A stretch of DNA of 64,000 nucleotides from a virus (lineage: Duplodnaviria > Heunggongvirae > Uroviricota > Caudoviricetes). Shown piece after piece: positions 1,662 through 33,953 of this stretch. The translations under genes were made by a program, and so were the position numbers. Numbering within the stretch: position 1 is the stretch's first letter; each line of letters opens with the position of its first letter. The notes under the pieces were generated by a model that had not been told where the DNA came from, searched no databases, and saw only the letters and a program-made list of their open reading frames with translations. The stretch lies in IMG/VR virus record IMGVR_UViG_3300011339_000564, positions 14,318 through 78,317 of that record. One strand, 5' to 3'.

Positions 1662-3919
1662 CAAATTCTCCGGAAATAGAAAACATTATCGAACAATCGA
1701 TTGAGTATGCCAAACAACGTAAACATCAATATGTTACAGTTGAACACTTACTTCTTGCATTAATTAATCATCCATCTTTTACTAAATGCGTAGTTGGCTT
1801 TGGCATAGATGTTGAGTCAATGTCACACGAAATCACTGGTTATTTAGATAGCTTACACGCTATTGTTTATACTGAAACTGAAGTAGTTCCACGCAAAACA
1901 AGTAGTTTAGAACGGGTTATGAATCGTTCTGTCACTCAGGTTCTATTCACCGGACGTAGACAAGTTACTACTATTGATTTGTATCTAAGTATTGCAAGTG
2001 AAGGTAACAGTCACGCACATTATTTCATGCTCAAATACGGTATGCAAAAGAATGAGTTTGTTGCGTACTGGCAAAAACACTATAAGAATGAAGGCGCCGG
2101 CAATCTTACTGAAAATCAAGCAGATGAAATTCTTGAAGAATATACTATTAACCTAAGTGAACTTGCTAGTCAAGGTAAACTTGAACCATTGATTGGTCGT
2201 GCAAAAGAACTTGATGATATTATCAATGTGCTTGCTAAACGATTTAAATCAAATGTATTGATGGTGGGTGATCCGGGTGTAGGTAAAACTGCTATTGCCG
2301 AAGGTCTTGCACAAATGATGCACGACAAACAAGTGCCTGAATTTTTAGAAGGTCATCAACTATATTCATTAGAAGTTGGTTCATTACTTGCCGGCAGCAA
2401 ATATCGCGGGGACTTTGAAGAAAAAGTCAAAGCCATTATCGATGCATTGAATACTAAAAAGAAAGCTATTTTATTCATTGACGAAGCACATACTATGCAA
2501 GGTGCAGGTTCAAGCTCCAATGGTAGTGTTGACTTTGCTAATATGATTAAACCAGCAATTACTAAAGGCACATTGAAAGTTATTGCTAGTACTACTTGGG
2601 AAGAATACTACGAAAGTTTTGAGAAGGATCGTGCATTAATGCGTAGATTCTATCGTGTCTCAATTGATGAACCAAGCAACGAATCTACTGTTCGAATTCT
2701 TTCTGGACTAAGCACACGATTGAATGACTTTCATAGTGTTGAAATTCAAGAAGATGCAATTAAAGCATCAGTTGAAATGTCAACACGATACATTCACGAC
2801 CGAAAAAATCCTGATAAAAGTATTGACTTATTGGATGCGGCTTGTGCTAAACAACGTGTTGCAGGTAATAAAGGTGCACATATTACTAAAGACTTAGTGT
2901 TTGACCAAGTAGAGAAGTTTACGGGAGTTCCTGCAGATAAGATGAAGGGTGATAATTTTGACCTTATCAATAACCTTGAGATTAATATCAAAGGTAAATT
3001 ATATGGTCAAGATGAAACCGTTCAGCAAGTGTTAGAACGTATCTATGTTAACTTTGCTGGTATCGGTAATGATACTAAACCAACAGGTAGTTTCTTGTTT
3101 TTAGGCCCAACAGGTACAGGTAAAACAGAATTGGCTAAGTTGTTAAGTAAGAACCTTGACATGCCATTGCTCAAATATGATATGAGTGAATACGGAGAAA
3201 AACATTCAGTATCTAGTTTGATCGGTCCGCCCCCTGGTTATGTTGGCTTCGGTGACAGTCAAGTCGGTGGTGGCCGTTTAATCAACGACTTAAGTAAGAA
3301 CCCACATGCTATCATGTTGTTTGATGAAGTTGAAAAAGCACACCCTGATATATTTAACATCTTCTTACAGATGTTAGACGAAGGTACTATTACAGGAAGT
3401 AATGGTAAGAAGGTTAACTGTAAGAATGCTATTATCATTATGACTAGTAACTTAGGTAGTGCCGATGGTGAGCGCAATAACATTGGTTTTGGATCACAAG
3501 ACAAGCAAGGAGAAGATGATAAAGCATTGAAAGAATTCTTTAAGCCAGAATTCAGAAATCGTGTTGATTTGATTTGCAAGTTTAACAAACTTGATAGCTT
3601 GGCTATTAAGAAAATTGTTATTAAGTTTACTGAAGATTTGAAAAAATCATTAATTGAAAAACACAATATCAATTTAGTATTGACAGAACCAGTAGTTGAG
3701 TATCTAGCTGAACAAGGGTATGACAAGAAAATGGGTGCTAGACCACTAGCACGTAAGATTGACGAATTGATTCGTGTACCACTGAGTAAAAAAGTATTGT
3801 TTGAACGCATTAAAAATGCTACTATTACTGCCAACATTGTTGGTGACACTATTGATTTTGCAGTGACACACAAATTAACAGCTAAGGTGAATGACGATGG
3901 CATTATTGAGGTCAGTTGA
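1658..3919 (+). CDS. clpA: ClpA-like ATP-dependent Clp protease ATP-binding subunit (two AAA+ modules)
   Basis: Two Walker A motifs (GDPGVGKT and GPTGTGKT). An IGF loop (NNIGFGS) sits just before [10 protein letters not shown], as in the ClpA ClpP-docking loop. At 753 aa there is no long ClpB middle domain. Confidence 0.85.
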
Positions 3920-4666: not shown

Positions 4667-4831
4667 ATGGCAAAGATTGTCGAAGATGTATTAGTCATCA
4701 AATTCAGTAAAATCGTTAAGGACAGCGAAGAAGGTTCTCCTATCGCTGGTTCTGATGTTCAAGCCGCATTAGAGCAAGTAGCACAGGAACTAGTTGGTTC
4801 GGGTGTTGTTGTTGAGGTTGTTCAAGCATGA
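4667..4831 (+). CDS. small acidic hypothetical protein (54 aa). It is not in the ORF track because it is under 60 aa.
   Basis: ATG at 4667 is preceded by GGAG at 4655-4658. The stop overlaps the next start (ATGA at 4828-4831). It fills an otherwise 195-nt gap. Confidence 0.4.
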   Translation: MAKIVEDVLVIKFSKIVKDSEEGSPIAGSDVQAALEQVAQELVGSGVVVEVVQA

Positions 4832-5202
4832 GCCAAACTACAACATTAATACTGTTGCCGCAAACTACATACCAGAATCCAGGTAACGGAGCACCTTACA
4901 CAGTTGTAGGGAACGCTCAACCAGCCGCTGCCTACTATCTAGGTAACAGAGACTTGCAAACAGTTAATCTTAGTTTAACTAACATGACAGGTAATATTGT
5001 AATTCAAGCTACACTATCAAATCCAGCAACACTTGATAGTCAATGGTTTGATGTATATGAATTAGATGCAAATGCTAATTCATCCGGCGATAACTCAAAC
5101 GCACAAACATATACAAATATAACAGGTAACTTTGTTTATATGAGAGCAAAGATTGTAGACTTCCAAGCTGGAGGCGTTAATTTTGTTAAGCTAAGTTATT
5201 AA
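4828..5202 (+). CDS. hypothetical protein (124 aa)
   Basis: ORF with an ATGA overlap to the upstream small ORF. Confidence 0.5.
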   Translation: MSQTTTLILLPQTTYQNPGNGAPYTVVGNAQPAAAYYLGNRDLQTVNLSLTNMTGNIVIQATLSNPATLDSQWFDVYELDANANSSGDNSNAQTYTNITGNFVYMRAKIVDFQAGGVNFVKLSY

Positions 5203-5203
5203 T

Positions 5204-6487
5204 ATGAAACAAATTGTCATTATGCCGGGAGGCTTTCATCCATTTCATGCAGGGCACGCCGCACTATATCAAAGTGCAGTGAAAGCATTTCCGAGTGCAG
5301 AAGTATATGTTGCCGCTACCAATGACACAAAAACAAGACCTTTCCCCTTTAATATCAAAGAAAAACTAGCAAAACTTGCTGGCGTAGCTCCTGGACATTT
5401 TGTACAAGTTAAAAGTCCTTTTAAAGCAGAAGAAATCACAAGTCAATATAATCCAGAAGAAGATGTATTAATTTTTGTGCGTAGTGAAAAAGATAGAACA
5501 GAACAACCTAAACCAGGTGGCACAAAGAAAGATGGTACACCTGCTTACTTTCAACCATGGACCGGTAAGAATTTACAGCCATTCAGTAAACATGCTTACA
5601 TTGCTTACTTACCAACTGTAGAGTTTGGACCTGGAATTCAGAGTGCGACTGAGATTCGCAACATGTGGCCTAAACTAAACGATAAGCGCAAGACTGCATT
5701 GGTTATGAGTTTATATCCGATAACACAGACAAATCCTAAACTTGCCGCTAACGTTGTTAAGATGTTAGATATAGGCATGGGTGAACGACAAGGTGTGGCG
5801 GAGGATAAAGAATCCGATCCAGTCACAAGTGCTGTATTAAATTTCTATAAGCCAGTAATAAATGATATCCACAAAGAAAAACTACCAGACTATGTTGACC
5901 AAGCTCGTGGATTGTTACAGAAAACAAATGATCCTGATATTCGTAGTAAATTAGTTGATATCTTTAAAAAGGGTAAAGAAAATCCATATATTCAAGGTGG
6001 CATTGTTACTACCGTTGGTGCAGTATTAGCCGGTGGTATATTAACTACAGCACAGAAGATGGGACTAAGCCCTGCACAAACTAACTTAGCATTACAAGCA
6101 ATATTGAATACAGTTATTCCTACAGTTGTTTCACGTATCAATGGTAAAAACTGGAGTGATACAATTAAGTATACATTAGCAAGTGCAGGTATAGGTACAG
6201 GTATTGCCGGCGCAAGTTTAGTAGAAAACGATCCTTGGGGAGATCAAGGTAACTTTGCAGGTGATCGACACGTTGATATTGGTGGAATTTTTACTAGACC
6301 TAAATTAGGTGTAGGTGATATGGTTAAAGTAAATGCAGGTCATTTCAAAGGCATCGGAGAGATATCAGAAATTAAAGGTGACCGTGCAGAAGTTTGGATG
6401 GACAGCTATGCTAAATCCTTCATGTTTGATTTATCTGACCTAGTAAAGTATATACCCGAATCCATAGATTACTTAGAAGAAAAATAA
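5204..6487 (+). CDS. Two-part protein. An N-terminal HxGH nucleotidyltransferase domain (NMN/NaMN adenylyltransferase-like) is followed by a GVAE motif and a Gly-rich hydrophobic C-terminal half.
   Basis: IMPGGFHPFHAGH (the (T/H)xGH motif of the cytidylyl/adenylyltransferase superfamily). RQGVAEDKE at about aa 195. Hydrophobic segment GGIVTTVGAVLAGGILTTA. Confidence 0.6.
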   Translation: MKQIVIMPGGFHPFHAGHAALYQSAVKAFPSAEVYVAATNDTKTRPFPFNIKEKLAKLAGVAPGHFVQVKSPFKAEEITSQYNPEEDVLIFVRSEKDRTEQPKPGGTKKDGTPAYFQPWTGKNLQPFSKHAYIAYLPTVEFGPGIQSATEIRNMWPKLNDKRKTALVMSLYPITQTNPKLAANVVKMLDIGMGERQGVAEDKESDPVTSAVLNFYKPVINDIHKEKLPDYVDQARGLLQKTNDPDIRSKLVDIFKKGKENPYIQGGIVTTVGAVLAGGILTTAQKMGLSPAQTNLALQAILNTVIPTVVSRINGKNWSDTIKYTLASAGIGTGIAGASLVENDPWGDQGNFAGDRHVDIGGIFTRPKLGVGDMVKVNAGHFKGIGEISEIKGDRAEVWMDSYAKSFMFDLSDLVKYIPESIDYLEEK

Positions 6488-6538
6488 TTTGACCCCCTCG
6501 ATAGAGTGTAAATATCTTTATCTTAACAAGAGGACCAA

Positions 6539-7435
6539 ATGGCAACTAAGAAAACCAAAAAAACTGAAGAAAAAACTGTACCCGTAGAAAAGGTACAGGA
6601 AATCGCTGAACAAGCGGCACAAGAACAGCAACAAGCCCCGCAACAGGGTCAAGTTCAAGTTAATGTTGACTTTCTAAAAACTACCCGTGTGCACATTGCT
6701 ATGCCATGTTACGGTGGTATGTTGACAGAATCAACATTTATGTCATTCATCAAGTGGGCTAACACAGCCCGTCAACTTGGTATTGACTGGACATTAGAAA
6801 CAATGGTTAACGAATCATTGATTAGCCGAGCACGTAATACACTAACTGCAAAGTTCTTGGACATGCCAGACGCTACTCACTTGTTCTTTGTTGACGCTGA
6901 CATTGGCTGGGAACCCTGGCATCTATTAGTTCTATTGAACCGTGATGTTGATGTTATTGGTGGACTATATCCAATGAAGACTATGCCTATTAAATGGGTA
7001 GTTAATGGTTTTGAAGGTGCAGAAGAAGGCACTGATGGCCTACAGGAAGTATCTAAAGCAGGTACCGGTTTCTTACTAATGAAGAAGCATGTATTTGACA
7101 AATTGAAGTCTCATCCTGCAGTTAAGCAGTATAAGAACGACATTGGTTTAGATCCAAGATTTGACCAACACTTAAAGACTTACTTTGATACAGCAGTTCG
7201 TCAGAATCGTTACTACAGTGAAGACTGGACATTCTGTGAAAACTGGCGTGATATAGGTGGTAAGATTTGGGTTGACAAGCGTGTACTATTACGTCACAGC
7301 GGCTCATATGTTTTCTGCCAAGAGAACCAAGAACACTTGATGAAGACTATTGGACCCATGTACGTAGACCAATTGACTCAACAAGGTATTAAGCTAGTTG
7401 ACAAAGACGGCAACGAAGCTAAAATCAACAAATAA
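6539..7435 (+). CDS. putative glycosyltransferase (DxD-type); assignment tentative
   Basis: FFVDADIGWEP contains a DXD-like motif in a predicted alpha/beta context. SD-like AAGAGGA lies upstream. Confidence 0.45.
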   Translation: MATKKTKKTEEKTVPVEKVQEIAEQAAQEQQQAPQQGQVQVNVDFLKTTRVHIAMPCYGGMLTESTFMSFIKWANTARQLGIDWTLETMVNESLISRARNTLTAKFLDMPDATHLFFVDADIGWEPWHLLVLLNRDVDVIGGLYPMKTMPIKWVVNGFEGAEEGTDGLQEVSKAGTGFLLMKKHVFDKLKSHPAVKQYKNDIGLDPRFDQHLKTYFDTAVRQNRYYSEDWTFCENWRDIGGKIWVDKRVLLRHSGSYVFCQENQEHLMKTIGPMYVDQLTQQGIKLVDKDGNEAKINK

Positions 7436-7436
7436 A

Positions 7437-7464
7437 ACAAAGCCCCGAAAGGGGCTTTTGTTTG
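7437..7464 (+). terminator. rho-independent terminator
   Basis: aaagccccgaaaggggcttttgttt: a GC stem (AGCCCC/GGGGCT) with a GAAA loop, then a T-run. Confidence 0.8.
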
Positions 7465-7475
7465 ATAAATACACT

Positions 7476-8792
7476 ATGAATTTAAAAGAACTTGATTCCT
7501 TTCGCATCTCTGACGCTATTAGTTTCCATGACAAATTGAACCCTAAGTTATGGAATAATACACGGTTGCGTCCTGAAGTAAAACAACAACTATTAATAAT
7601 AGCAGAAGATTTTTTAGAAGAATTAGGTATTAGTGGATTAGATGTAATAGACATGACTGTATCTGGTTCTAATGCCGCATTTAGTTATACACCCAACAGC
7701 GACCTAGACTTACACATATTAGTTGATATGAGTAAGTTGCCAAATGATGAAGTTTACAGAGAATTATTTACAGCAAAAAAATCATTATACAATGACAGCC
7801 ACGACATAAAAATACACGGGATACCAGTAGAGTTATATGTACAAGACGCCAGAGAACCAGTCGTAAGTCTAGGTGAGTACAGTCTCACAAATGATAACTG
7901 GCTTAAAATCCCATCAAAACGCAGAGCCAATTTTGACCAAACCGCCACCAAGACGAAATATGAAAAGTTATTAACATTAATAGAGCTAGCCCTCAAATCT
8001 AGAAAATACAGTAAAGTAAGTAACATAGCTAAAACAATTAAAAGATATAGACAATCAGGATTAGATAAGGGTGGCGAGTTTGGTCCTGAAAATCTAGCAT
8101 ACAAAGCATTAAGAGCACAGGGTTACATTACTAAGTTATACGATTTGCGTGACAAGTTACATAGTGAGAAGTTAACTATTGAAACGATGTACCAGCCCAT
8201 AAACGATGACTATGATCCAAATGGTCCTCCTCCAGGTCCCGAGTTTAAACCAACTATGCCTAAAGGTACTGTTAAAGTAGACGTAAGTGATGTATATGAT
8301 TGGTATAAGTTAGGACAACATATTAGTAATCTTAAGGGTCTAGGTAAGCACGACTTTGGTAGTGGACCTCCTAGTACTATTTTTTCATTTGGTGATGAAG
8401 ATACAGAACACCAGTACATTAAAGATTTAGAGAAGACCGGATTAACGACAACTGATATTGATCCAGTTGATCCCAAGCAACCCAAGGGTATGAAGCGTCA
8501 GAAAGTTGATCCTACATATAACGTCAATGAATACAACACTATGCAATTTGCGGCTGAAAAAACACCAGCAACAAACCCATATGGTGGTCTTAAAGATAAT
8601 CAATTTCGAGGAAGTATGTCAGAAGCAAGTGGATATATACCTTCAGAAAAACAAAAAAATGATCCTCGTTTTAGTACAGCATTGACAGTGGATGTTCATC
8701 CTGATTCAATCAAAAAGAACGCAAAAGCATTTGGATGGCTCACTAGCAGAGCCGGAATCCCTCCTACAGCGAAAGCAAACGGCAAAATCTGA
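7476..8792 (+). CDS. Pol-beta superfamily nucleotidyltransferase-domain protein (438 aa). The start is taken after the terminator; the track ORF 7398 is an upstream extension.
   Basis: GSNAAFSYTPNSDLDLHIL matches G[SG]-x9-13-D-h-D-h of minimal nucleotidyltransferases. The ATG at 7476 follows the terminator. Confidence 0.55.
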   Translation: MNLKELDSFRISDAISFHDKLNPKLWNNTRLRPEVKQQLLIIAEDFLEELGISGLDVIDMTVSGSNAAFSYTPNSDLDLHILVDMSKLPNDEVYRELFTAKKSLYNDSHDIKIHGIPVELYVQDAREPVVSLGEYSLTNDNWLKIPSKRRANFDQTATKTKYEKLLTLIELALKSRKYSKVSNIAKTIKRYRQSGLDKGGEFGPENLAYKALRAQGYITKLYDLRDKLHSEKLTIETMYQPINDDYDPNGPPPGPEFKPTMPKGTVKVDVSDVYDWYKLGQHISNLKGLGKHDFGSGPPSTIFSFGDEDTEHQYIKDLEKTGLTTTDIDPVDPKQPKGMKRQKVDPTYNVNEYNTMQFAAEKTPATNPYGGLKDNQFRGSMSEASGYIPSEKQKNDPRFSTALTVDVHPDSIKKNAKAFGWLTSRAGIPPTAKANGKI

Positions 8793-9087: not shown

Positions 9088-9162
9088 TAAACTAACAAGT
9101 TTGGTGGAATTCCTTGTCTATATAGATTTTTGATAAATACTATATAATATTGGAATTCCATC

Positions 9163-9942
9163 ATGCGTTTTACAGAAATATCAGAATCTACAACATCAGG
9201 CTCAGTATCTACTGTAGCAATGCCACTAGGCAAAACTCAAACACGTACTCAAGTATCTGGTTTAGAACCCGTGAAAAAAGTAATGGGCGGCACTGCTAAG
9301 AAAAAAGGTCCATATGGAAATAGTCTTACTGAAGGTGCTATGAAGCAACTTTCAATGGATCTTAAAGAGTTAAAAGACGAAGAATTCAAAAAGAAATATA
9401 ATATGACTAAGCAGGAAGCCCGTACTGAATTATCTGCAAAGCCTGAACCCATCAAAGAAGCAGAACTATCTGAAGATGATATCATATTAGTTCCAGGACA
9501 GGGACGCAAAATGAAAACTGGATTTGTACCGCATGGTCAAAGTCGTGTAGACCATGAAGTAGAAATGGCACGTAGTGATTTATTCAGTGCGGCAAAGAAC
9601 GCTAAACAAGTATATGAAATGATTCATAGTGTATCTGAAGATGAGGGTCTTGAGGGCTGGGTACAAGAAAAGATTATCAAAGCCAACGACTACCTAAATA
9701 CAGTACGTGAATACTTAGAAGGTAAACAAATTCAACAAGAAGCTAGTAGTCTTACATATGAAGGTAAGATTGACTTTGCCAAAAAGATACAAAAGAATGT
9801 AGATAAGAGTAACAAAGCAGTAGTAAAGACTAGAAAAGAAGTTGGTGCAAGAATTGCTGATATTGGTGCAGGCGGCAAAGAACACAATGTTAAAACTGAC
9901 AAAGCGTGGGACGATGCACAAAAAGCAAAGAAAGCAAAATAA
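9163..9942 (+). CDS. Lys/Glu-rich hypothetical protein (259 aa), possibly virion-associated or scaffold-like
   Basis: Long charged ORF directly upstream of the giant protein gene. Confidence 0.5.
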   Translation: MRFTEISESTTSGSVSTVAMPLGKTQTRTQVSGLEPVKKVMGGTAKKKGPYGNSLTEGAMKQLSMDLKELKDEEFKKKYNMTKQEARTELSAKPEPIKEAELSEDDIILVPGQGRKMKTGFVPHGQSRVDHEVEMARSDLFSAAKNAKQVYEMIHSVSEDEGLEGWVQEKIIKANDYLNTVREYLEGKQIQQEASSLTYEGKIDFAKKIQKNVDKSNKAVVKTRKEVGARIADIGAGGKEHNVKTDKAWDDAQKAKKAK

Positions 9943-9943
9943 A

Positions 9944-12900
9944 ATGAGCAATATTCTACAAGGCTTAAACGAAACACAAAAACATGACGGTGTATTCTTG
10001 TTAACAGAATCTCGTACATACAAGTTATGGGAGAGTGCTGGACAAAAGATTAGTGAAGCACAACTAACTGCCGATCAGATTAATCAAATCTTTAAACAAG
10101 TTGAACAAGGTGCTACTGCCGCAGGTGGTAATCGTACAATGCTCGGTAAAGGTAAAGACGCAGCCGGCGCAGTAAAGCAAGCATATGATGATTTGGTGAG
10201 TAAAGCACAGAACTCAGGACCTATTAAAGGTGTTGATGCGATGTACGACAAAGCCGCCGAAAAATTAAAACAAGCAACTGGTGGCGATCAGGGTGTAATG
10301 AAATATGTACAGAAATATCGTGACTTTGCTAAAGAACACCCAGTAGCACAAGGTTTAATATATTCAGCATTAATTGCAGCCGCTGGTATCAGTGGTGCAG
10401 GTATTGGTGGTGCAGCCGCACTAGGTTTGTTTAAGATGGTAGACAAATTGTTACAGGGTGAGAAGTTTAGTACTGCTGTAGGTAAAGGCGTAACTACTGG
10501 TGCAATGGCTTATGGTGCAAGTAAAGTTGGTGATCTTTTCAAAGGTTCACCGCAAGGCGCACCTACTACTGCTGGATCAGACGCTACCGCAGGTGCGGCA
10601 CAAGATACATTGTCTGCGACTAGACAAGCAGTGGAAAAAGAAGCTATGGATGCCATTAAGTCTAGAATTGCCAATGGAGAAATAGCACCCGGCGATCAAG
10701 GTGCCATACGATATTTGGCATACAAAATGCTAGCTGGATCATGTATGCCGCCGCCGTCTATAGAAACTTCTGTAGAAAAATTAATAACACGATCTATGGG
10801 TGATGTAGGAACTAGCGCAACTAATACAGTGTCCGGCACATTGTCAGGTGTTACCGGAGAACAGATGGCTAGTCATCCTGCATACCAAGCAATGATTCAA
10901 AAGTTTGGCAATACACCCGGCGCTCGTCAGGCGGCTATGGCTGCTGCCAAGTCAGCAATTCTTAAGGGACAAGTCAATGAAAGTATCAATTTATCAGAAT
11001 CTCAAATCTTTCTATTGATAGGTAAGATTGTTGAACGTCAACGTAAACTTGACGAAGGCATCATGGATACACTTAAAGGCGCCGCAGGTAAAGCCGCCGA
11101 TTGGGCACAAACTAAAGGAACTAATTTAACAACTAAAGTTACTGCTGACAAATTATTACAAGCGTGGAAGAAAGCTGGTAGTCCAACAGATAGTTTAGAT
11201 GTTGCAAGCATTATTCAAAAAGCTGGTGTACCATCTGATTCAATCAAACAAGTATACACTACAATGCAAATACCTTTTGCAGGTGAAAAAGGTGCAGGTG
11301 CGAGTACAAAACGTAATATAGATGTTGATCCATCAAGTGTTGCACCAGCCGCTCCAACAAGTACACCCACTGCTTCTGCACCGTCAGCTACAGCAAATGC
11401 GCCGGCGGCAGATGCATCACAGCCTGCTACGGCCGCAACTGGCTCTTTAGCACAAGCACAAGAACTCATTGCAAAATTAGATCCAGAAACTAAAACAAAA
11501 CTTATATCAACATTGAAACAAGAGTTGAGTGTAGCTGAAAGTCGAATCAATGAATTATCTAATGAAAAATTAGGACAATACAAAAAAGCCGCAAGTGCTG
11601 ACGCTACTGCCGCTGACAAAGCAGGTGACTATAAGCGTGGTGATAAACGTTTCAGTGGTATTGTTCGTGCAACTAACAAACAGTTTGCTAATGATACTAA
11701 AAAACATGGTCAGCAAGGTGTGGCGGAAGGCTTAGAGCAATCATTATCGTCAATGGTAAGACAAGATCAGACTGAGCGGAATGAGTATGCAACCTTTGTA
11801 AAATCACAAGCAGGTGGTGATTGGTCCAAAGGGGCTAAAATGTATGCTCAACTCAAAAAAAGACCCATCGATGATATATTTGGTGATGCAATAAGATTAA
11901 ACCAGTTTATGAAAATGAAGTTTGATTTTGATAAATTTACCAATGAAGATTGGGACAATTATTGGTTGTTAGCACAGCATTGTGATAATAATCGTGACTT
12001 TCAAAAGAATGCTTTATCAATAATTAAAAAATATCAAGGTACAGATCATTCGCACTACAAATATCTATACGATAGAATCAGTATGGGTCTAACTGGTAAA
12101 CAGAAATACGGAACACAGAATATTAAAGAGCAAGGCGTGGCAGAAGGCTTCCCTCATGATGTTGACCATATGCCGGGTCCTGTGATTCGCAATGCTGATA
12201 TGACTACAGATAATGTCAAGACCAAAGACAAAGCAGAATGGGACAGAGCCACTGATAGCATCAACGCACGGGTGTTTGATGATATGAGTGAATTTCGCAC
12301 TGACAACAACGGTGAAACAGTTGTCGGTGATAGCGCAGTTTGGGCCAAGTGGGACAATGCTACACAAACAGGTTGGTTCAATGCCAAAGGTCGCCCATTA
12401 AAGCCTTGGCCTGTTAAAGAGCAAGGTGTGGCGGAAGGTGATGGGCCAAGATATATTGATAACATAATGAACCAGTATAAGGCAGGCTTGCCTGGCCAAA
12501 ACCCGGCGGCCTTATCTAAACCAACTAGAGCAGTTGATGCCAGAGGTCGCACACAAGAACAATGGGCACAATTAGTTAGGAGCAAGTTTCCGGGTGCTAA
12601 AATTACACAGGCTAAAATGATTGACGGGCCTATGCAAGCAACCTTACCTGATGGTAGAAAACTTGGATGGAAAAAAGTTGAACAAATTGATGAAATTATT
12701 GATCCTAGCACAAAGATGGCATGGGCATTACGCCACATCGCCGGGTTCCTTACTAGATTATTTCCTTACGCAGTGGGCGCCGGAACTTTGTGGGCAGCCA
12801 GTGGACTGTTGGCCCCACTAGTGGCTGCATCCGGTGGAGTGGCCGCGGCAATTTCTGCATTAGGCGGTTCAATGGGATCAGCTACAGGCGCGGCTGCAGG

Positions 12901-13795
12901 AGCAGTTGGCGGTGCCAGTATAATGCAAATTATTAAAAACTTATTTGCCGCAGACGAGAATAGTATACAAGCAGGAATTAAAAAGTGGGTAGAAAGACAA
13001 GTAGGTGACGAAGCCGATGTACAAGAATTTTTACTAACTCATGCCAAAGCCGCATATGACGGTAAACCTGGTTTCCGTTGGAGGGCTAAAGAGTGGCCTG
13101 TTAAATTAAGTAAAGATCAAGCAGAAGCATATTTAGAAAAGAAAGATAAATCTTGGCTTGATTATGAAAAGCAAAAAATAATCGATGCTGAAAAAGCGAA
13201 GGCTGAAAAAGATAAAGAAGGTATGATGGAAGAACAACTTGATGAACTAAATTGCTGGTCAGGTTACCATAGAGTTGCCGGCACTAAAGCAGGCTTTCCA
13301 GGTAGTTGTGCTAAAAATAAAACAAATGAATCAGAACATAAATGCCCACATTGCGGTGGCGAGATGGTTAGTGAAGAACTAATGAATGAAAAGAAAGATG
13401 CTTGCTACTATAAAGTAAAGAGCCGTTATAAAGTATGGCCAAGTGCTTATGCTAGTGGTGCGTTAGTTAAGTGCCGTAAGAGTGGTGCTGATAGCTGGGG
13501 CAACGGTGGAAAGAAGAATGAAGGTTCTATACTAGAAGGTATTAACCGAGCAGACGAAAGTTTGCATGATTGGTTTAATAAAGAAAAGTGGGTTCGCATG
13601 GATACTAAAGGAAAGATTAAAGGTCCGTGTGCTAGAGAACCAGGAGAAGGTAAACCTAAATGTTTACCTCAAGCAAAGGCACATAGTTTAGGCAAAAAAG
13701 GTCGTGCAAGCGCGGCTGCTAGAAAACGCAGAGAAGATCCCAATCCAGAACGTAGTGGTAAAGCCATCAATGTTAATACTAAAAAGAAAGACTAA
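9944..13795 (+). CDS. giant protein (1283 aa). Features are Gly/Ala-rich hydrophobic segments, three EQGVAEG motifs, coiled-coil and a C-terminal Cys cluster. Putative virion internal/ejection protein.
   Basis: ATG at 9944 lies just after the TAA of the upstream ORF; the track start 9842 is an in-frame upstream extension. Motifs: QQGVAEGLEQ, KEQGVAEGFPHD, KEQGVAEGDGPRY; CPHCGG...C...C near the C-terminus; hydrophobic block AVGAGTLWAASGLLAPLVAASGGVAAAISALGG. Confidence 0.75.
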   Translation: MSNILQGLNETQKHDGVFLLTESRTYKLWESAGQKISEAQLTADQINQIFKQVEQGATAAGGNRTMLGKGKDAAGAVKQAYDDLVSKAQNSGPIKGVDAMYDKAAEKLKQATGGDQGVMKYVQKYRDFAKEHPVAQGLIYSALIAAAGISGAGIGGAAALGLFKMVDKLLQGEKFSTAVGKGVTTGAMAYGASKVGDLFKGSPQGAPTTAGSDATAGAAQDTLSATRQAVEKEAMDAIKSRIANGEIAPGDQGAIRYLAYKMLAGSCMPPPSIETSVEKLITRSMGDVGTSATNTVSGTLSGVTGEQMASHPAYQAMIQKFGNTPGARQAAMAAAKSAILKGQVNESINLSESQIFLLIGKIVERQRKLDEGIMDTLKGAAGKAADWAQTKGTNLTTKVTADKLLQAWKKAGSPTDSLDVASIIQKAGVPSDSIKQVYTTMQIPFAGEKGAGASTKRNIDVDPSSVAPAAPTSTPTASAPSATANAPAADASQPATAATGSLAQAQELIAKLDPETKTKLISTLKQELSVAESRINELSNEKLGQYKKAASADATAADKAGDYKRGDKRFSGIVRATNKQFANDTKKHGQQGVAEGLEQSLSSMVRQDQTERNEYATFVKSQAGGDWSKGAKMYAQLKKRPIDDIFGDAIRLNQFMKMKFDFDKFTNEDWDNYWLLAQHCDNNRDFQKNALSIIKKYQGTDHSHYKYLYDRISMGLTGKQKYGTQNIKEQGVAEGFPHDVDHMPGPVIRNADMTTDNVKTKDKAEWDRATDSINARVFDDMSEFRTDNNGETVVGDSAVWAKWDNATQTGWFNAKGRPLKPWPVKEQGVAEGDGPRYIDNIMNQYKAGLPGQNPAALSKPTRAVDARGRTQEQWAQLVRSKFPGAKITQAKMIDGPMQATLPDGRKLGWKKVEQIDEIIDPSTKMAWALRHIAGFLTRLFPYAVGAGTLWAASGLLAPLVAASGGVAAAISALGGSMGSATGAAAGAVGGASIMQIIKNLFAADENSIQAGIKKWVERQVGDEADVQEFLLTHAKAAYDGKPGFRWRAKEWPVKLSKDQAEAYLEKKDKSWLDYEKQKIIDAEKAKAEKDKEGMMEEQLDELNCWSGYHRVAGTKAGFPGSCAKNKTNESEHKCPHCGGEMVSEELMNEKKDACYYKVKSRYKVWPSAYASGALVKCRKSGADSWGNGGKKNEGSILEGINRADESLHDWFNKEKWVRMDTKGKIKGPCAREPGEGKPKCLPQAKAHSLGKKGRASAAARKRREDPNPERSGKAINVNTKKKD

Positions 13796-13804
13796 AGGAC
13801 AATA

Positions 13805-14245
13805 ATGTTATCAGATAATCTAAAAGTACTTTTAGCTAGTACACAAAGTTTTGCTATTAAAACACAAAACTTTCATTGGAATGTTGAGGGGAGTAATTTT
13901 CCACAGTATCATGCATTTTTTGATACGTTATACGGTGATGTAAGTGCTACTATCGATCCTATCGCTGAATATATCAGAATATTAGGTGCTTACACACCCG
14001 GCAGTTTACAACGTTATGCTGAACTAAGTATCATTCAAGACCAAATCAAAATCCCACGTGCTCAACTAATGTTTGCTGAATCACTACAAGATTGTGAAAA
14101 AATGAGTGAATTAGTCGTTGCTATGTTTGACGAAGCAACAAACGAACGTCAGCAAGGCATTGCTAATTACATGGCTGAACTACAAGACCTATACGGTAAG
14201 AAAGCATGGTTCATTCGTTCTACATTGAAAACAGAACGTGAGTAA
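13805..14245 (+). CDS. dps: Dps-like ferritin-fold DNA-protection protein
   Basis: LKVLLASTQSFAIKTQNFHWNVEGSNFPQYHAFFDTLY matches the Dps N-terminal signature (HWNVxGxxFxxLHxxF). About 146 aa, typical Dps length. Confidence 0.7.
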   Translation: MLSDNLKVLLASTQSFAIKTQNFHWNVEGSNFPQYHAFFDTLYGDVSATIDPIAEYIRILGAYTPGSLQRYAELSIIQDQIKIPRAQLMFAESLQDCEKMSELVVAMFDEATNERQQGIANYMAELQDLYGKKAWFIRSTLKTERE

Positions 14246-15515
14246 ATTAGAATTTACCCAGAAAGAATGGGAAAAGATAGAAAATAACGGGACTTATTGT
14301 CCCGGTTTATTTAACAGCAAATACATAGAAACTGACGGTGGACTGAGAGCATGTTGTGTTCAAGATTTAAAAGGTGAACATTATACAAATACAGAATCCT
14401 ATAACACCACTTCGTTAAAACAAGCCAGACAAAATTCATTATCAGGGATTAAAGATTCCAGTTGCGCTAGATGTTGGGAAAATGAATCATTAAACACCAG
14501 ATCATATAGACAAGGTCTAGTAGAGTCTGCTATTCACTGGAAAAGTAAAATCAAAGATAATATAAATGTTGACTATTCCATCACAGAACCCACCATAGAC
14601 TACTTAGACATTAGATTTGATAATATCTGTAATTTAAGATGTAGATATTGCAGTACTATTTTTAGTTCTAGTTGGAGACACGAAACTGAGTTACTAGAAA
14701 AAGAATTACCAATATTTAAATATATAAAAAGAAGATCAGTAGATACAAAAATATTGAATAGTGTAACCGATATTGACACGATATTAGCTGACCTTAGAAC
14801 AGTTAAAAAAATATTTTTTGCGGGTGGCGAGCCATTAGTAAACGATAAACATTATGAAGTGTTAGAATATCTAATAGATAATAATAGAACCAACATTGAA
14901 ATAACGTATAATACTAATTTTACAAACATTAAAAAAGTTATTCCTTATTGGAAAAAGTTTTCAAACATACACGTGGGTGCAAGTTTAGATGCAAATTATA
15001 AAAGAGGAGAATACATTCGTAAAAATCTCGTATGGGACCAGATTGTAGAAAATAGAAAATTAATGATTGCCGAAGTTCCTCATGTTCAATTTGAAATAAA
15101 TGCGTCAATGAGTATATTGAATGCGTATAATGTAGTAGATTTTCATAAAGAATGGATTAATGATAAATTAATTGGACCTTTTGATTTAACTGCATGGAAT
15201 TTTGTATCTAAACCTGAACATTATGATATTAGGAATTTACCTGACCATCATAAGATTAAATTAAAAGAAATATATCAAACTCATATTGATTGGTTAAACT
15301 CCCTCACATCAGGCAATGATATTAAGTTTAAAAGTAAAAATGATTCTAGTTTTGCTATTCAATCATATCAAGGTATAATTAATAGGTTAAATTTAAGTAG
15401 AAATTCATCTTTTGACAAATTTTGGGAATTTGACAAATGGTTAGATAATAATAGAGATGAAAACTTTTTTGATGTGTTTCCTGAGTATGAGGACTTTGCT
15501 AGATATTTTAGCTAA
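14238..15515 (+). CDS. radical SAM domain protein with an N-terminal Cys-rich extension
   Basis: CNLRCRYC is a CX3CX2C radical SAM cluster motif. Additional N-terminal cysteines (CPG...ACC...CARC). No C-terminal SPASM cysteines. GTG start assumed at 14238. Confidence 0.65.
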   Translation: MSKLEFTQKEWEKIENNGTYCPGLFNSKYIETDGGLRACCVQDLKGEHYTNTESYNTTSLKQARQNSLSGIKDSSCARCWENESLNTRSYRQGLVESAIHWKSKIKDNINVDYSITEPTIDYLDIRFDNICNLRCRYCSTIFSSSWRHETELLEKELPIFKYIKRRSVDTKILNSVTDIDTILADLRTVKKIFFAGGEPLVNDKHYEVLEYLIDNNRTNIEITYNTNFTNIKKVIPYWKKFSNIHVGASLDANYKRGEYIRKNLVWDQIVENRKLMIAEVPHVQFEINASMSILNAYNVVDFHKEWINDKLIGPFDLTAWNFVSKPEHYDIRNLPDHHKIKLKEIYQTHIDWLNSLTSGNDIKFKSKNDSSFAIQSYQGIINRLNLSRNSSFDKFWEFDKWLDNNRDENFFDVFPEYEDFARYFS

Positions 15516-16707: not shown

Positions 16708-16787
16708 AGTAATTTTTTCTATATTTTGTAAATTTTTATGCCAAATGGAATAAATATATGTTCATCATATTTATTATCGGAGGACAG

Positions 16788-17747
16788 ATGAGAAAACTTT
16801 TAGTATTATTAGCATTTATACCGTTAGTTGCTTTTGCTTGGCAACCAACAAAACCTGTAACAGTTATATTCCCAAATGGCCCGGGAGCAGGAAATGAAAT
16901 ATCATTTCGTATTGTAGCAGAGATTGTAGAAAAACAAACTGGTGCAAAATTTGTACCTGAATATAGGCCGGGAGCTGATGGCAATATAGCTATCAATCAC
17001 TTTGTAACAGTTCCTACTGATGGGCACACTATCAGTGTTCCGGCATGTCAGTCAAATTGGGTCACCCCTGAAGTGTGGTATCCAAAGGTAATCAAGTATA
17101 ACCCAATGGATTTAGAACCCATTGCTAATATTGCACGTAGTCCATTAGCATTCTGGGCGCATCCTAGCAGTAAGATTAATACTCCCGAAGAACTAGTAGC
17201 CGCTATTCGCAAAAAAGAGCGCCCTATTACAATAGCAATAGGTGGCGGCGGTCATAAGTTAGCAGTTGAATATCTTGCTGCCAAACTAAATGTACCGGGC
17301 GGTGATCGAATAGAAACAGCTATGTATAAAGGTCCAGCACAAGCGTTATTAGATGTAATGGGAGGTCACGTTGAATTTGGAGTGACCCCGGTTGCTGTTG
17401 GATACCCTCACGTACAAACAGGAAAACTAAAGTTAATTGGTATTGCTGATACTAGACCATTGCCTGGATTAGAAACAGCACCATTGATGAATAAGGCAGC
17501 ACCTGGATTAAGCATACATGGTTGCTGGAATATAGTTCTACCTCCCAATACCCCGCAGGATATACAAAAATGGTATGCTGAACACTTTGTTCCTGCAATA
17601 CGTAGCGCGGAAGCAGGCGCTAAATTCAAAGAAAACATGATGTACATTACACCCGAAGAACATAGCCCAGCAGGTGTTCGTGCTAGTATGTCGAGACTAC
17701 AGCAAGTTTGGCAACCGATTGCTAGAAGAATAGATCCTAATAAATGA
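16788..17747 (+). CDS. TctC/Bug-family periplasmic solute-binding protein (tripartite tricarboxylate transporter receptor-like)
   Basis: Signal peptide MRKLLVLLAFIPLVAFA. Length and motifs (PNGPGAGNEISFRIVAE, EYRPGADGNIAI) resemble the Bug/TctC family. Start chosen at the internal ATG 16788 with GGAGGA upstream. Confidence 0.55.
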   Translation: MRKLLVLLAFIPLVAFAWQPTKPVTVIFPNGPGAGNEISFRIVAEIVEKQTGAKFVPEYRPGADGNIAINHFVTVPTDGHTISVPACQSNWVTPEVWYPKVIKYNPMDLEPIANIARSPLAFWAHPSSKINTPEELVAAIRKKERPITIAIGGGGHKLAVEYLAAKLNVPGGDRIETAMYKGPAQALLDVMGGHVEFGVTPVAVGYPHVQTGKLKLIGIADTRPLPGLETAPLMNKAAPGLSIHGCWNIVLPPNTPQDIQKWYAEHFVPAIRSAEAGAKFKENMMYITPEEHSPAGVRASMSRLQQVWQPIARRIDPNK

Positions 17748-18319
17748 AAATAGGTTTATCAATGGAGATGACCCGCAAGTTGCGTGATACGTGGCATGCG
17801 GCTATCAATTACGAATGGTATGACTTTTTATCAGAGCATGATACTGTTCCTTTATCCTGTCATGGAAAAGTTCCGCAGACAGATGAGTTTGACTTAATCA
17901 TATTGGCAGGTGGTAATGACATGCACGGCATTAAAACATGGCGTGACAATCATTATCCAATACGTGACCACTATGAGCATAGTTTGATTCAACAATGTTT
18001 GTTAACTAACACCCCTGTTGCTGGCATATGCAGAGGAGCTCATTTTATCAATCATGTTATGGGTGGCACACATAAGTTAATGGATCACCCATACGACAAT
18101 GTTAAAGTTCAATTGCCTCAGTTTGAAGTAACTTGCCATCACACAATTCAACTTGATACATTAGCTCCTGGCTTTGAAGTGTTACAACAAGATAAAAATG
18201 GTATTGTTGAATTAGCAGTAAATAAATCACAACGTATGTTAGGTATTGGTTGGCATCCAGAACGTGAAGTTAACAAACATACTAGACAATACATTTTAGA
18301 TTTGATTAAGGACTTATGA
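17744..18319 (+). CDS. class I glutamine amidotransferase-like protein
   Basis: GICRGAHFINHV (nucleophile-elbow-like Cys) and GWHPERE (His-Pro-Glu of the GATase triad). Confidence 0.5.
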   Translation: MKIGLSMEMTRKLRDTWHAAINYEWYDFLSEHDTVPLSCHGKVPQTDEFDLIILAGGNDMHGIKTWRDNHYPIRDHYEHSLIQQCLLTNTPVAGICRGAHFINHVMGGTHKLMDHPYDNVKVQLPQFEVTCHHTIQLDTLAPGFEVLQQDKNGIVELAVNKSQRMLGIGWHPEREVNKHTRQYILDLIKDL

Positions 18320-19741: not shown

Positions 19742-19981
19742 ATGAAAGAACATATCTACACATCATCCAAAGGAGAGAGTTTTTTATCATGGGATGATTG
19801 GGCACTCCAAACACTAAACGAAAGTGATTTGAGTGTTTATCTTAGCCCCCAAGTAGAAGGTTCAACATTATCTGCTGATAAATTGGCTTTATATGCACGT
19901 TGGGTAGACGAAGAACAAATATTAACACACGTTGTTAAAGAAGATGATGTTATAATACAACAATCAAATGCACTCAAGTAA
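19742..19981 (+). CDS. hypothetical small protein (start moved to the internal ATG at 19742)
   Basis: AAGGA lies upstream of the ATG at 19742. The track start at 19712 lacks an SD. Confidence 0.4.
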   Translation: MKEHIYTSSKGESFLSWDDWALQTLNESDLSVYLSPQVEGSTLSADKLALYARWVDEEQILTHVVKEDDVIIQQSNALK

Positions 19982-20540
19982 TTTTATTACAGAATCTGCC
20001 GTAGATGAGTTAGCAAAAAAACTACCCTCATTGACTAAACACGACTATGATACCATTGATACATTAATGAGAAGTATTGCCAGTAGACATAGCATGAGTG
20101 GTAATGCATTACATGATTTGTTTGTAAAAAAATATAAAAGAACACCCGATAACTGGATTAAACATAAATTAGACGAAGGTGATGATTCAGATTTGCAACA
20201 AGAAGTTGATAAATTCTGCGATTGGGCATGTAAACGATTGCATATAAAATCTAAACCTGAAATTGAACTCAGTATGGATACTGAAGAAGCACAAAATAAT
20301 CATCATACAGGTGGTCATCAAATGGGCGCTGATAGTATTTGGGTATATGTAAATAATCGTAACCTAGTTGATATACTACGCACAGTATTTCATGAATTGG
20401 TTCATGTGCGCCAAGGTGAATTAGATATGATTAAGCCGGGTGATAGTTACCCAGGTAGCCCAATTGAAGCAATGGCAGATATGCTTGCGGGCAAATACAT
20501 CAAAATTTATGGTGAACAGAACCATCATATCTTTCAATAA
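19968..20540 (+). CDS. putative small zinc metallopeptidase (HExxH)
   Basis: FHELVHVRQGE contains HExxH in a short (190 aa) protein. Confidence 0.45.
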   Translation: MHSSNFITESAVDELAKKLPSLTKHDYDTIDTLMRSIASRHSMSGNALHDLFVKKYKRTPDNWIKHKLDEGDDSDLQQEVDKFCDWACKRLHIKSKPEIELSMDTEEAQNNHHTGGHQMGADSIWVYVNNRNLVDILRTVFHELVHVRQGELDMIKPGDSYPGSPIEAMADMLAGKYIKIYGEQNHHIFQ

Positions 20541-20560
20541 TTGATTATTTGTGCTATAAT
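20532..20560 (+). promoter_or_regulatory. sigma70-like promoter (TTTCAA-17-TATAAT). The ATG at 20567 is 6-7 nt downstream, so the transcript is probably leaderless.
   Basis: TATAAT at 20555-20560. The -35-like hexamer TTTCAA sits 17 nt upstream. Confidence 0.4.
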
Positions 20561-20566
20561 GCACAG

Positions 20567-21163
20567 ATGATTAAGATTACAGTTCCATTACCCAAACAAA
20601 TTACTGTTGCATGTAGCGGCGGTGTTGATAGTATGGCTGTAGTTGACTTTCTAAGTCGCAAACACGATGTAACTATTGCCCATTTTAATCATAGAACACA
20701 AAACGGTGAACGTGCCGCCCAATTTGTTTCTGGGTATTGTGGTGATAATAATATTCCTATGCTATACGGATCACCTCGCAGTGAACGCGGAACAAAAGAA
20801 TCAATGGAAGAATATTGGCGCAGAGAACGATATGAATTCCTAAGCGAATTAGGACCGGTCATCACTTGTCATCATCTGGATGACTGTGTTGAGACATATG
20901 TTTGGTCTAGTTTACATGGTACAGCCAAAGTTATCCCACTCACTCGCAAAAATGTATTGCGCCCATTTTTAACTACACGTAAGAGTGAATTTGTTCGATG
21001 GTGTGAACAACATAAAGTTCCTTGGATTGAGGACGAATCAAACAAAGATACCAAATACACAAGAAATTACATTCGCAACGAAATGATGCCACATATATTG
21101 AAAGTCAATCCGGGCATTCATACTTTGGTCAAGAAGATTGTAGAAGGTAAGCAAAATACTTGA
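20567..21163 (+). CDS. tilS: TilS-like PP-loop ATPase: the tRNA(Ile)-lysidine synthetase catalytic domain only (about 198 aa)
   Basis: SGGVDS PP-loop. CHHLDDCVETYVW matches the TilS AHHLDDQxETFL block. RPFL...WIEDESNKDTKYTRNYIRNEMMP matches TilS RPLL...WIEDESNQD..Y.RN.LR. It lacks the QueC C-terminal Zn cysteines, so it is not QueC. Confidence 0.7.
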   Translation: MIKITVPLPKQITVACSGGVDSMAVVDFLSRKHDVTIAHFNHRTQNGERAAQFVSGYCGDNNIPMLYGSPRSERGTKESMEEYWRRERYEFLSELGPVITCHHLDDCVETYVWSSLHGTAKVIPLTRKNVLRPFLTTRKSEFVRWCEQHKVPWIEDESNKDTKYTRNYIRNEMMPHILKVNPGIHTLVKKIVEGKQNT

Positions 21164-33825: not shown

Positions 33826-33953
33826 TTATTACAATATTAGTTACAATAGCAGTAATAATAGCTATTGTTATAATGATTGCTACGATGCCAAATGCTAGTA
33901 GATGTAACGGAGACTGCAATCAAGGTCGTAACTGTACTTGTAGGGAGCAATAA
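33822..33953 (+). CDS. tiny hydrophobic peptide (43 aa) with a Cys-rich tail (CNGDCNQGRNCTC); speculative
   Basis: ATGA overlap with the folE stop. The TAA overlaps the next ATG (33953). One TM helix. Confidence 0.3.
   Translation: MIITILVTIAVIIAIVIMIATMPNASRCNGDCNQGRNCTCREQ

Follow-up and report, generated by a model that had tools for sequence, protein, structure and literature searches.

A mosaic cassette polyprotein and its recurrent QGVAEG junction in a putative T4-superfamily jumbo phage

The stretch of viral DNA analysed here (the window; 64,000 nucleotides, positions 14,318 to 78,317 of the IMG/VR Caudoviricetes record IMGVR_UViG_3300011339_000564) carries at 9944-13795, on the + strand, a gene for a protein of 1283 amino acids (aa). 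This protein is a ‘beads-on-a-string’ cassette polyprotein of mosaic architecture, in which a 10-residue leader is followed by a basic, all-helical core, a set of exchangeable cassettes and four small, basic, cysteine-containing modules, with the peptide QGVAE↓G joining the pieces (the arrow marks a putative cleavage position, here and below). The best reading of its role is that it is packaged in the phage head, processed by a protease and ejected, to which a probability of roughly 0.55 is given. The window also encodes a family-B DNA polymerase, which shares 49% identity with its counterpart in Sinorhizobium phage Phosso, 46% with that of Atu_ph07 and 44% with those of K64-1/RaK2, and because of these identities of 44-49% the polymerase marks the source as an uncultured T4-superfamily jumbo phage. 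A megablast search found no real match of positions 1-25000 of the window to cultured phages.

The open reading frame (ORF) is real. It runs from an ATG at 9944 to 13795, stop codon included, and the start is backed by an N-terminus, MSNIL(Q/K)GLNE, that is common to the homologues; a longer TTG start and the P0001 start are probably miscalls. The leader, MSNILQGLNE (9944-9973, +), ends in L-N-E, is a candidate capsid-targeting propeptide with its cleavage site, and is conserved in homologues although the sequence downstream of it varies. The core that defines the family (aa ~20-589, 10001-11710, +) begins with a strongly conserved block A (aa 20-200, with the family motif GxxxxGxGGAAxLGL). 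A variable insert (aa 200-340) and a strongly conserved block B (aa 341-447, with the family motif IVERQRKLDEGIMDT...KVTADKLLQAWKKAG) come next, then an Ala/Pro/Thr linker at aa 462-500 and, last, a helical tail with the end ...KQFANDTKK. The first of two hydrophobic Gly/Ala segments (aa 134-166, 10343-10441, +) forms the hydrophobic hairpin of the core, is glycine-zipper-like, reaches a Kyte-Doolittle maximum of 1.72 over 19 aa and is near-invariant over 55 homologues at G148, G153, G155, G156, A157, A158, L160, G161 and L162. An AlphaFold2 model of the core is all-alpha, with one 46-residue helix at aa 514-559 (predicted local distance difference test, pLDDT, 61.8; predicted template modelling score, pTM, 0.34). 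Comparison of this model with the Protein Data Bank (PDB) by Foldseek returned generic helical repeats only, at E > 0.1, and phmmer found no PDB sequence match.

Beyond the core, three junctions separate the cassettes, all on the + strand: junction 1 at aa 591-596 (11714-11731, encoded by CAAGGTGTGGCGGAAGGC), junction 2 at aa 730-735 (12131-12148, CAAGGCGTGGCAGAAGGC) and junction 3 at aa 827-832 (12422-12439, CAAGGTGTGGCGGAAGGT). Between the first two lies cassette M1 (aa 597-729, 11732-12130, +), which is almost unique to this phage, and between the second and third lies M2 (aa 736-826, 12149-12421, +), which is acidic, with an isoelectric point (pI) of 4.9; most segments of the protein are basic, with a pI of 9-10. 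Cassette M3a (aa 833-917, 12440-12694, +) has the C-terminal end EQIDE. It is followed by M3b (aa 918-1101, 12695-13246, +), which holds the second hydrophobic Gly/Ala segment (aa ~925-997, 12716-12934, Kyte-Doolittle maximum 1.93) together with a charged helix and, in degenerate form, a junction reading GMMEE↓QLDE. The basic cysteine modules at the C-terminus (13250-13792, +) are near-invariant in 17 homologues and have a pI of 9.6-10.1. They consist of a CW.GY module (aa 1103-1128), a CPHCGG plus DUF5872-like stretch (aa 1134-1190) and an LHDWF...DPNPxRxGKAINV module (aa ~1200-1283), and their AlphaFold2 model (pLDDT 46) is unusable.

Much of this layout had been anticipated by a first-pass annotation made from the letters alone. 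The ORF of 1283 aa, the Ala/Pro/Thr linker and the C-terminal CPHCGG...C...C cluster were all correctly called (the cysteines are C1134, C1137, C1154 and C1177, to which C1104/C1122 and C1229/C1240 can be added), and the three putative protease sites that it listed are the three QGVAEG copies from which the main result grew. Two hydrophobic stretches do exist, the second lying ~40-60 aa upstream of the 990-1040 first given for it, and the proposed long coiled-coil comes down to the predicted 46-residue helix and the charged helix at aa ~1055-1100. The statement that no family can be named holds for curated families: in Pfam both DUF5872 (19.1 bits, cutoff 27.5) and DUF2076 (22.4 bits, cutoff 38) fall below the gathering threshold, and the PHROG matches of the protein and its segments are of unknown function throughout. 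Pfam and PHROG scans detected neither a signature polyvalent enzymatic domain nor a peptidase module in the protein.

The junction is conserved at the nucleotide level, as the near-invariant 18-mer CAAGGTGTGGCGGAAGGC, and is widely shared among phages. The window holds six copies of the 17-mer CAAGGTGTGGCGGAAGG at up to two mismatches where 0.02 are expected, an excess far beyond chance, and the motif stands in frame in three further ORFs (5204-6487, +; 43174-44955, -; 44952-45644, -). The codons are rare ones, GTG accounting for 12% of Val codons and GCG for 6% of Ala codons in the genome. They recur in L124, one of the related loci (designated here by L numbers), which was fetched by protein identity and is unbiased for DNA: five of its six GVAE sites use GGTGTGGCGGAA. 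An IMG/VR scan with an exact 14-mer gave at least 120 loci, where in-frame junctions part hundreds of unrelated modules of about 55-100 aa; the counts that follow are lower bounds among the matches listed. They comprise at least 160 copies, with 2-4 copies each in at least 28 loci; 135 listed copies are in frame in long ORFs, 84 of the 135 being preceded by Gln, and their flanks are unrelated. The contigs are mostly of 36-47% GC, with 96 of 120 loci below 50%. The base after the 14-mer, which the query left unspecified, is C in 74-78% of the listed copies, whereas GGC makes up only ~20% of Gly codons. A control with GTT-GCA, GGTGTTGCAGAAGG, the likeliest of the synonymous spellings, yielded no multi-copy loci, and Gln preceded 6 of its 84 in-frame copies. 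Variant junctions keep the peptide pattern with other codons, GMAEA being encoded by GGTATGGCTGAAGCT and GLAEA by GGTTTGGCAGAAGCA. No conservation or structure was found in the flanks of the junction 18-mer, and the searchable literature, queried with the string GVAEG, held no description of such a joint.

At the protein level, homologues have (K/E)(Q/E)-G-V-A-E-(G/E) at essentially every boundary of unrelated modules. A word-indexed search returned 399 matches, all metagenomic and without a functional name (some bear the label ‘hypothetical protein’, or that of a ‘LysM repeat protein’), with lengths of 708-1866 aa among the 120 matches listed of the 399. When aa 1-600 were searched exhaustively with HMMER, the family came to 1,725 clusters at 50% identity, of which 1,194 have E ≤ 1e-10; family members span 295-1866 aa, and some of ~420-450 aa are the core alone. 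No relative of the core was present in the 185,579 GTDB genomes scanned, and this is therefore not a prophage gene. When the whole protein was compared with 50,697 phage records by tblastn, only the C-terminal 12% was matched.

The cassettes turn over far more than the core does. Residues 20-500 are covered in 117 of the 119 closest homologues, the shared region reaching ~590 in part of them, while aa 600-1100 of the window protein are present in at most 3-10 of the 119 and aa 1120-1283 in 34. Module order is permuted over the homologues, with the C-terminal modules found also in other orders or N-terminal to the core, and LysM is carried by ~20 homologues. The module upstream of junction 1, the core tail ending in KQFANDTK(K), is joined to at least seven different downstream modules. 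Across 147 junction-bearing proteins, 190 segments have a junction on both sides (median 83.5 aa, interquartile range 64-145), and clustering by sequence sorts them into 139 groups, 114 of them with a single member.

Two related loci show directly that modules have recently been gained, lost and replaced in frame, with breakpoints at junctions, because their blocks of homology to the window DNA break there. L247 (protein P0002) is 94% identical over 9753-11732, that is, to the exact end of junction 1, and is then divergent to 13343. L246 (P0010) matches the window in four blocks: 10994-11732 at 91%, 12426-12694 at 97.8%, 13232-13330 at 97% and 13335-14300 at 99%. The second of these begins inside junction 3, and further breaks fall at EQ(I/L)DE repeats. 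Cassette M3b, which in the window is bounded by the direct repeat GAACAAnTTGATGAA encoding EQ(I/L)DE, is missing as a whole block from L246, which reads ...KKVEQIDELNCW... and holds an extra GVAEE-flanked module not found in the window.

Junction-bearing complete ORFs, together with many of their neighbours, also share a way of starting, M-(R/K)-x-x-(D/E/Q/N)-Φ-Φ-x-E (Φ, hydrophobic), as in MRANEFITE, MKITELVQE and MRFNEITES. In the loci, 78 ORFs begin in this way, and an enrichment of the leader is seen for junction ORFs (odds ratio 6.4, P 1.5e-11). Since its codons vary, it is the protein sequence that is conserved. Leader-like N-termini in the window are MSNILQGLNE of the polyprotein and MRFTEISE of the 259-aa protein encoded upstream of it, both outside the strict pattern, and MHSSNFITE, MRANEFAVDE and MRITEILTE. 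In T4, the gp21 protease cuts after L/I-X-E, and the capsid-targeting sequence (CTS) is MKTYQEFIAE (PMC9026906). The leaders resemble the T4 CTS, and they, like the junction V-A-E↓G, fit the gp21 motif L/I-X-E↓; as a sequence pattern, the N-terminus of the polyprotein has the form of a 10-19-residue propeptide ending in L/I-X-E. Most leader-bearing genes, for example in L002, L024, L060 and L099 and at 41770-45644 of the window, have no Shine-Dalgarno sequence, and many start a few bases from the upstream stop (…taaATGAGAGCA…), which suggests that their initiation is coupled or independent of a Shine-Dalgarno sequence.

The ATG of the polyprotein gene lies 1 nt after the stop of the 259-aa gene (9163-9942, +), whose product continues from its leader into STTSGSV and whose position is conserved; the two form a unit at 9163-13795. 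Homologous neighbours begin MKISQIIQETSTTAGSVA in L123 and MKINQIIVETSTTAGVVA in L124, and relatives of the 259-aa gene in L026 and L056 bear GVAEG junctions. A T4-type late-promoter-like element, TGATAAATA (9131-9139, +), stands 31 nt upstream of the unit. The late-promoter consensus is TATAAATA in T4 and NATAAATA in S-PM2 (PMC2984593); upstream of the polyprotein gene the canonical TATAAATA was not found, only the variant GATAAATA. Copies of TGATAAATA occur in the window at 4634, 7463, 9131, 19713 and 52284 on the + strand and at 45708 on the - strand, five of them upstream of leader/junction clusters. In many IMG/VR loci GATAAATAC is found 25-35 nt upstream of the ATG of the first genes of leader-bearing operons, and 26% of leader/junction ORFs, as compared with 11% of other ORFs, have ATAAATA in the 70 nt upstream. 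The GATAAATA elements upstream of leader genes thus weakly recall T4-type late promoters.

A link to the virion is provided by the C-terminal modules. Residues 1104-1279 are 47-55% identical to cyanomyovirus genes sited between gp15 and gp16/gp17, and the P-SSM2 copy of these, PSSM2_123, is annotated as T4-GC119. Supplementary Table 8 of Sullivan et al. (2010) has T4-GC119 among the structural proteins, with 13 peptide counts for purified virions of S-SM1, and its gene varies from 276 to 2985 nt among cyanophages (Sullivan et al., 2010). Junction ORFs are also found beside head genes: by local tblastn they adjoin portal, gp21-like protease, scaffold and major capsid protein (MCP) genes in L019, L051 and L083, and TerL in L033, L059, L099, L103 and L119. 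Four junction ORFs match a ‘virion structural protein’ PHROG; among the families listed for 87 junction-bearing ORFs by PHROG and Pfam there is no MCP, scaffold or portal. The head module of L051 (1-9938) is compact and T4-like; it encodes an M23-peptidase/tape-measure-like protein, then portal, a small protein, a core protein that is acidic, the gp21-like protease, scaffold and MCP. The N-terminus of this MCP, MSQALLE↓GRWDETKEALME↓G, is itself leader-like, and a 240-aa basic ORF lies between the MCP gene and the junction polyprotein.

Sister proteins with the same joints or leaders are encoded elsewhere in the window. The ORF at 5204-6487 (+) has a nucleotidyltransferase domain followed by QGVAED (5789-5806) and then by hydrophobic and other modules; its proposed identity as an orthologue of the virion cytidylyltransferase T4-GC190 is unsupported, the only match being of 28% to a Microcystis phage gene. 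On the - strand, the product of 43174-44955 starts with MNFKELFEG, passes through GMTEE↓ to QLDEINW and a Sec-like signal (…AHA), and has NEGVAEG (44354-44370) ahead of a GP88 domain, while that of 44952-45644 starts with MRITEILTE and has SQGVAEG (45286-45302) ahead of DUF6321, the fourth module of cyanophage T4-GC119 proteins. The kinase-like protein of 41770-42444 (-) has the leader MRANEFAVDE and a Kinase-PolyVal match at E 0.003, below threshold. Sister proteins and neighbours in related loci include ART-PolyVal (L249), GNAT, ParB_N, GH19 plus LysM, dCMP deaminase, SNase and M48. A Fe/Mn superoxide dismutase gene (42620-43174, -) sits inside the leader/junction operon, and the sequence with which its product starts, MRDLIQLLEDKSKPQD, is found again in L032 and L118.

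Signal-peptide-like segments occur directly after a leader or junction: GMTEE↓QLDEINWKKAAATGAMALGAMGALGSAGSAHA, which is Sec-like with an AxA motif (window 44812-44700, - strand), MRATEFVTE↓MDRRGFLRG at the N-termini in L024 and L060, and ...PINE↓DISRRGFLKGMGAAAVAGAAG, a match to Pfam TAT_signal (twin-arginine translocation, TAT) inside a 1166-aa L123 protein (4699-8199, aa 748-771). Such segments would be N-terminal only once cleavage had taken place. The L123 protein contains NTP_transf_2, DUF5661, DUF6934, TAT, TonB_C and M48 domains. Its counterpart in the window is the gene at 7398-8792, whose listed TTG start is probably wrong; from an ATG at 7476 (MNLKELDSF...) its N-terminus matches that of the L123 protein, the C-termini match too, and the gene looks like a short version of the L123 protein without the middle cassettes.

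Under the preferred interpretation, the polyprotein would be expressed late, and its N-terminal leader would target it into the prohead core. There a protease of the T4 gp21 type would cut after Glu, at L-N-E↓ of the leader and at V-A-E↓G of each junction, with possible extra cuts at degenerate sites, of which GMMEE↓Q and SILE↓G are examples. Once freed, the modules would remain associated with the packaged DNA and accompany it into the next host, much as the T4 internal proteins and Alt do and as is predicted for phage polyvalent proteins. There the basic cysteine modules would probably bind nucleic acid, and the modules with hydrophobic segments or signal peptides would probably go to the membrane or periplasm. 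Packaging in the head is favoured because the leaders and junctions fit the logic of gp21 and the CTS, because T4-GC119, the cyanophage homologue of the C-terminal modules, is found in S-SM1 virions, because junction ORFs adjoin protease, capsid and terminase genes elsewhere, and because the neighbours at related loci have ART-PolyVal (the Kinase-PolyVal match in the window being sub-threshold). Packaging followed by ejection is suggested by the basic nature of most segments, as in the T4 internal proteins, and late synthesis by the late-promoter-like GATAAATA upstream of leader genes. The 18 nt of the junction may have a second role, as a joint of microhomology for the in-frame swapping, insertion and deletion of cassettes. 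It is tentatively suggested, at odds somewhat below even, that QGVAE↓G (CAAGGTGTGGCGGAAGGC) acts in many uncultured aquatic phages as a universal dual-purpose joint, at once a processing site and an in-frame microhomology site through which any module could move from gene to gene and from phage to phage, for plug-and-play assembly with a shared leader. On this reading injected effectors would evolve in a combinatorial manner, as a protein-domain analogue of gene cassettes.

Several observations weigh against packaging and processing. We infer both of them, cleavage of this protein or of any GVAEG site as well as entry into the head, from indirect indications. The gene lies outside any head module, amid DnaJ/ClpB, Dps, radical-SAM and DNA polymerase genes, and no structural genes were found in the 64-kb window, prohead protease and MCP included. 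MSNILQGLNE is a poorer fit to the T4 CTS than are the leaders of its neighbours. Support from the promoter-like elements is weak, since TGATAAATA occurs six times for an expectation of 2.25, and a count of six is attained in 2 of 100 shuffles. The virion evidence is limited to the C-terminal modules and comes from a different phage family, and near its N-terminus the L051 MCP has L-L-E↓G and L-M-E↓G, not GVAE↓G. Sec- or TAT-like signals after a junction or leader would suit export from the producing cell equally well, and strict conservation of nucleotides is not something that the protease hypothesis demands.

The gene neighbourhood of chaperones, Dps and replication genes rather than head genes, together with the two hydrophobic segments, the LysM domains on ~20 homologues and the TonB_C, M48, TAT and Sec-like signal modules that follow junctions in related proteins, would also suit a multi-domain membrane or envelope protein of the infected cell that never enters the virion and serves in envelope remodelling, superinfection exclusion or lysis control. 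The Gly/Ala segments would then be anchors, and the junction a flexible linker and recombination joint that is left uncleaved or is cut in the cytoplasm. This alternative is rather unlikely: it leaves unexplained the CTS-like leaders and the Φ-x-E↓small form of every junction, as well as the detection of T4-GC119 in virions and the presence of junction ORFs in head modules, and the permuted order of modules favours pieces that act independently. If the junctions are cut, the protease need not be that of the head. A leader-bearing protein of 190 aa with the N-terminus MHSSNFITE and an HExxH motif (HELVH), encoded at 19968-20540 (+), is a candidate alternative processing peptidase, as are M48-type sister modules, one sister polyprotein having a Peptidase_M48 module, and host proteases. 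L123 and L124 have an HExxH ORF at the corresponding position, junction polyproteins of L002 and L060 begin with the N-terminal module of this ORF, and autoprocessing by metallopeptidases has been proposed for polyvalent proteins (PMC5512222). The 190-aa product, however, has no significant match to a Pfam peptidase family, the polyprotein has no peptidase module of its own, and cleavage after Glu with a hydrophobic P3 is a signature of gp21-type serine proteases that is not known for zincins, which makes processing by a dedicated protease from outside the head improbable.

Strict conservation of unusual codons, extending to the unspecified third base of the final Gly, could mean that the 18-nt element acts mainly as RNA or DNA (a translational pause at rare codons, a regulator site, or the target of a nuclease or recombinase) and that the peptide is incidental. 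Since within ORFs the element keeps to a single reading frame throughout, since variants keep the peptide and change the nucleotides, and since neither flanking conservation or structure nor an Rfam match accompanies it, this is a shade less probable again than a protease from outside the head. The least probable of the alternatives, by some distance, is a tape-measure or tail-channel protein. The protein is certainly long and largely helical, with hydrophobic segments, but there are no tail genes nearby and no tape-measure match in PHROG or Pfam; the neighbours are the leader protein, Dps and radical-SAM genes, with the nucleotidyltransferase-fusion ORF and ClpB further upstream. A variable length (295-1866 aa) and modules that are permuted even in close relatives, with cassette insertions and deletions at >91% identity, are incompatible with a length ruler. 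Of the first-pass suggestion of an ejected inner-capsid or tape-measure-like protein that forms a channel across the envelope, the ejected inner-capsid part is thus the one best supported; the tape-measure and envelope-channel parts are without support, in view of the chaperone, Dps and replication neighbours, the range of lengths, the permuted order and the want of a structural match. Homology to T7/N4-type ejection proteins and to phiKZ-type inner-body proteins was likewise rejected, the latter for want of any homology.

The only known system homologous to the polyprotein is T4-GC119, and this at the C-terminus only; the other systems are comparable in function. T4-GC119 (P-SSM2 PSSM2_123, S-RIM2 gene 101) is a true homologue of the modules at aa 1104-1279 and is, like the present family, highly variable in length, but it is without the core, the hydrophobic segments and canonical GVAEG, has boundaries of the type VEE↓G, VNE↓G and QME↓G, and is encoded inside the neck/terminase module. 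The internal proteins of T4 (IPI, IPII, IPIII) and Alt share with the polyprotein a short leader ending hydrophobic-x-Glu, motifs of the post-Glu cleavage type, basic mature parts and variable cargo, and the polymerase places the source phage in the T4 superfamily. PHROG, Pfam and tblastn gave no match to Alt or to an annotated internal protein (IPI/IPII/IPIII). Unlike them, the polyprotein strings together many cargoes with internal sites, and QGVAEG is far more specific than L/I-X-E and is conserved as DNA. The inner-body and ejection proteins of phiKZ, 201phi2-1 and SPN3US likewise belong to jumbo phages, many head proteins of which are cut after Glu at a short motif (S/A-X-E), associated with DNA and ejected; they differ in being separate gene products rather than cassette polyproteins, and the polymerase of the window is T4/RaK2-like.

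Polyvalent proteins, found in phages and in conjugative elements, combine 2-15 distinct effector domains, with MPTase, ParB, ART-PolyVal and Kinase-PolyVal among the signature ones, and their predicted fate is packaging and injection along with the DNA (Iyer, Burroughs, Anand, de Souza, & Aravind, 2017; PMC5512222). They too are giant, multi-module and mosaic in the extreme, and occur in phages with portal-terminase packaging, as relatives of the present protein adjoin TerL and portal genes; the likeness extends to neighbours and sisters with ART-PolyVal, ParB_N, GNAT, nucleotidyltransferase, peptidase and sub-threshold Kinase-PolyVal domains. The polyprotein differs in that no signature enzymatic domain was detected in it, its modules being small and without a function in databases, and a fixed junction peptide/DNA joint with a shared leader is not seen in the passages of PMC5512222 found by keyword. 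As regards the joint, the polyprotein may also be set beside systems of segment exchange. In the His-boxes of T-even tail-fibre adhesins and in shufflon repeats, short conserved in-frame sequences serve as joints for the swapping of segments. Those systems concern one locus and one function, whereas here one joint is found across many genes, functions and phage lineages.

The polyprotein gene has a conserved setting. The window is of 37% GC with almost all genes on one strand, and its other genes encode DnaJ, a ClpB/ClpC-like ATPase, Dps/ferritin, radical-SAM enzymes, family-B DNA polymerase, ligase and nucleases. On contigs of up to 358 kb the order ClpB ... nucleotidyltransferase ... leader protein of 250-350 aa, giant protein, Dps ... 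DNA polymerase is maintained. The Dps/ferritin-like gene of the window (13805-14245, +) is directly downstream of the polyprotein gene, and a ferritin-like gene lies within two genes of the family member at all seven related loci read (in five it is the next gene downstream; L248 has it one gene upstream, and L249 two genes downstream). A DnaJ and ClpB/ClpC-like double-AAA+ chaperone pair (858-3919 in the window, 2387-5456 in L249; ClpB alone in L124, at 1-1934) stands 6-8 kb upstream of the family member wherever related loci extend that far, and it is a speculation that the pair handles unfolded or packaged cargo.

Other features of the window concern the phage at large. Enzymes for 7-deazaguanine (preQ0/queuosine-precursor) synthesis are encoded at 33145-38512, with FolE at 33145-33825, QueD at 35130-35612, QueE at 37664-38512 and a further gene at 36647-37282; additional members at 17744-18319 and 20549-21163 complete a set that includes an amidotransferase and a weak QueC-like ORF, which suggests that the phage hypermodifies its own DNA. 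A homologue of the TctC-like periplasmic binding proteins, the receptors of tripartite tricarboxylate transporters, is encoded at 16758-17747 and is present also in L124. ARAGORN found no tRNA in the window, and the whole window gave no Rfam match.

If the polyprotein is indeed packaged, processed and ejected, hundreds of ‘hypothetical’ modules of uncultured jumbo and T4-like aquatic phages would be cargo delivered to the host upon infection, the boundaries of which could be read from the junctions, and a repertoire of effectors and anti-defence proteins would become searchable. The junction would be one of the rare cases in which selection acts twice on a short sequence, as protease site and as recombination joint, and this would account for the building and diversification of giant mosaic proteins in phages. 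For practical use, the leader and the set of junctions could provide a natural toolkit with which foreign proteins are packaged in phage heads, as the T4 CTS already does.

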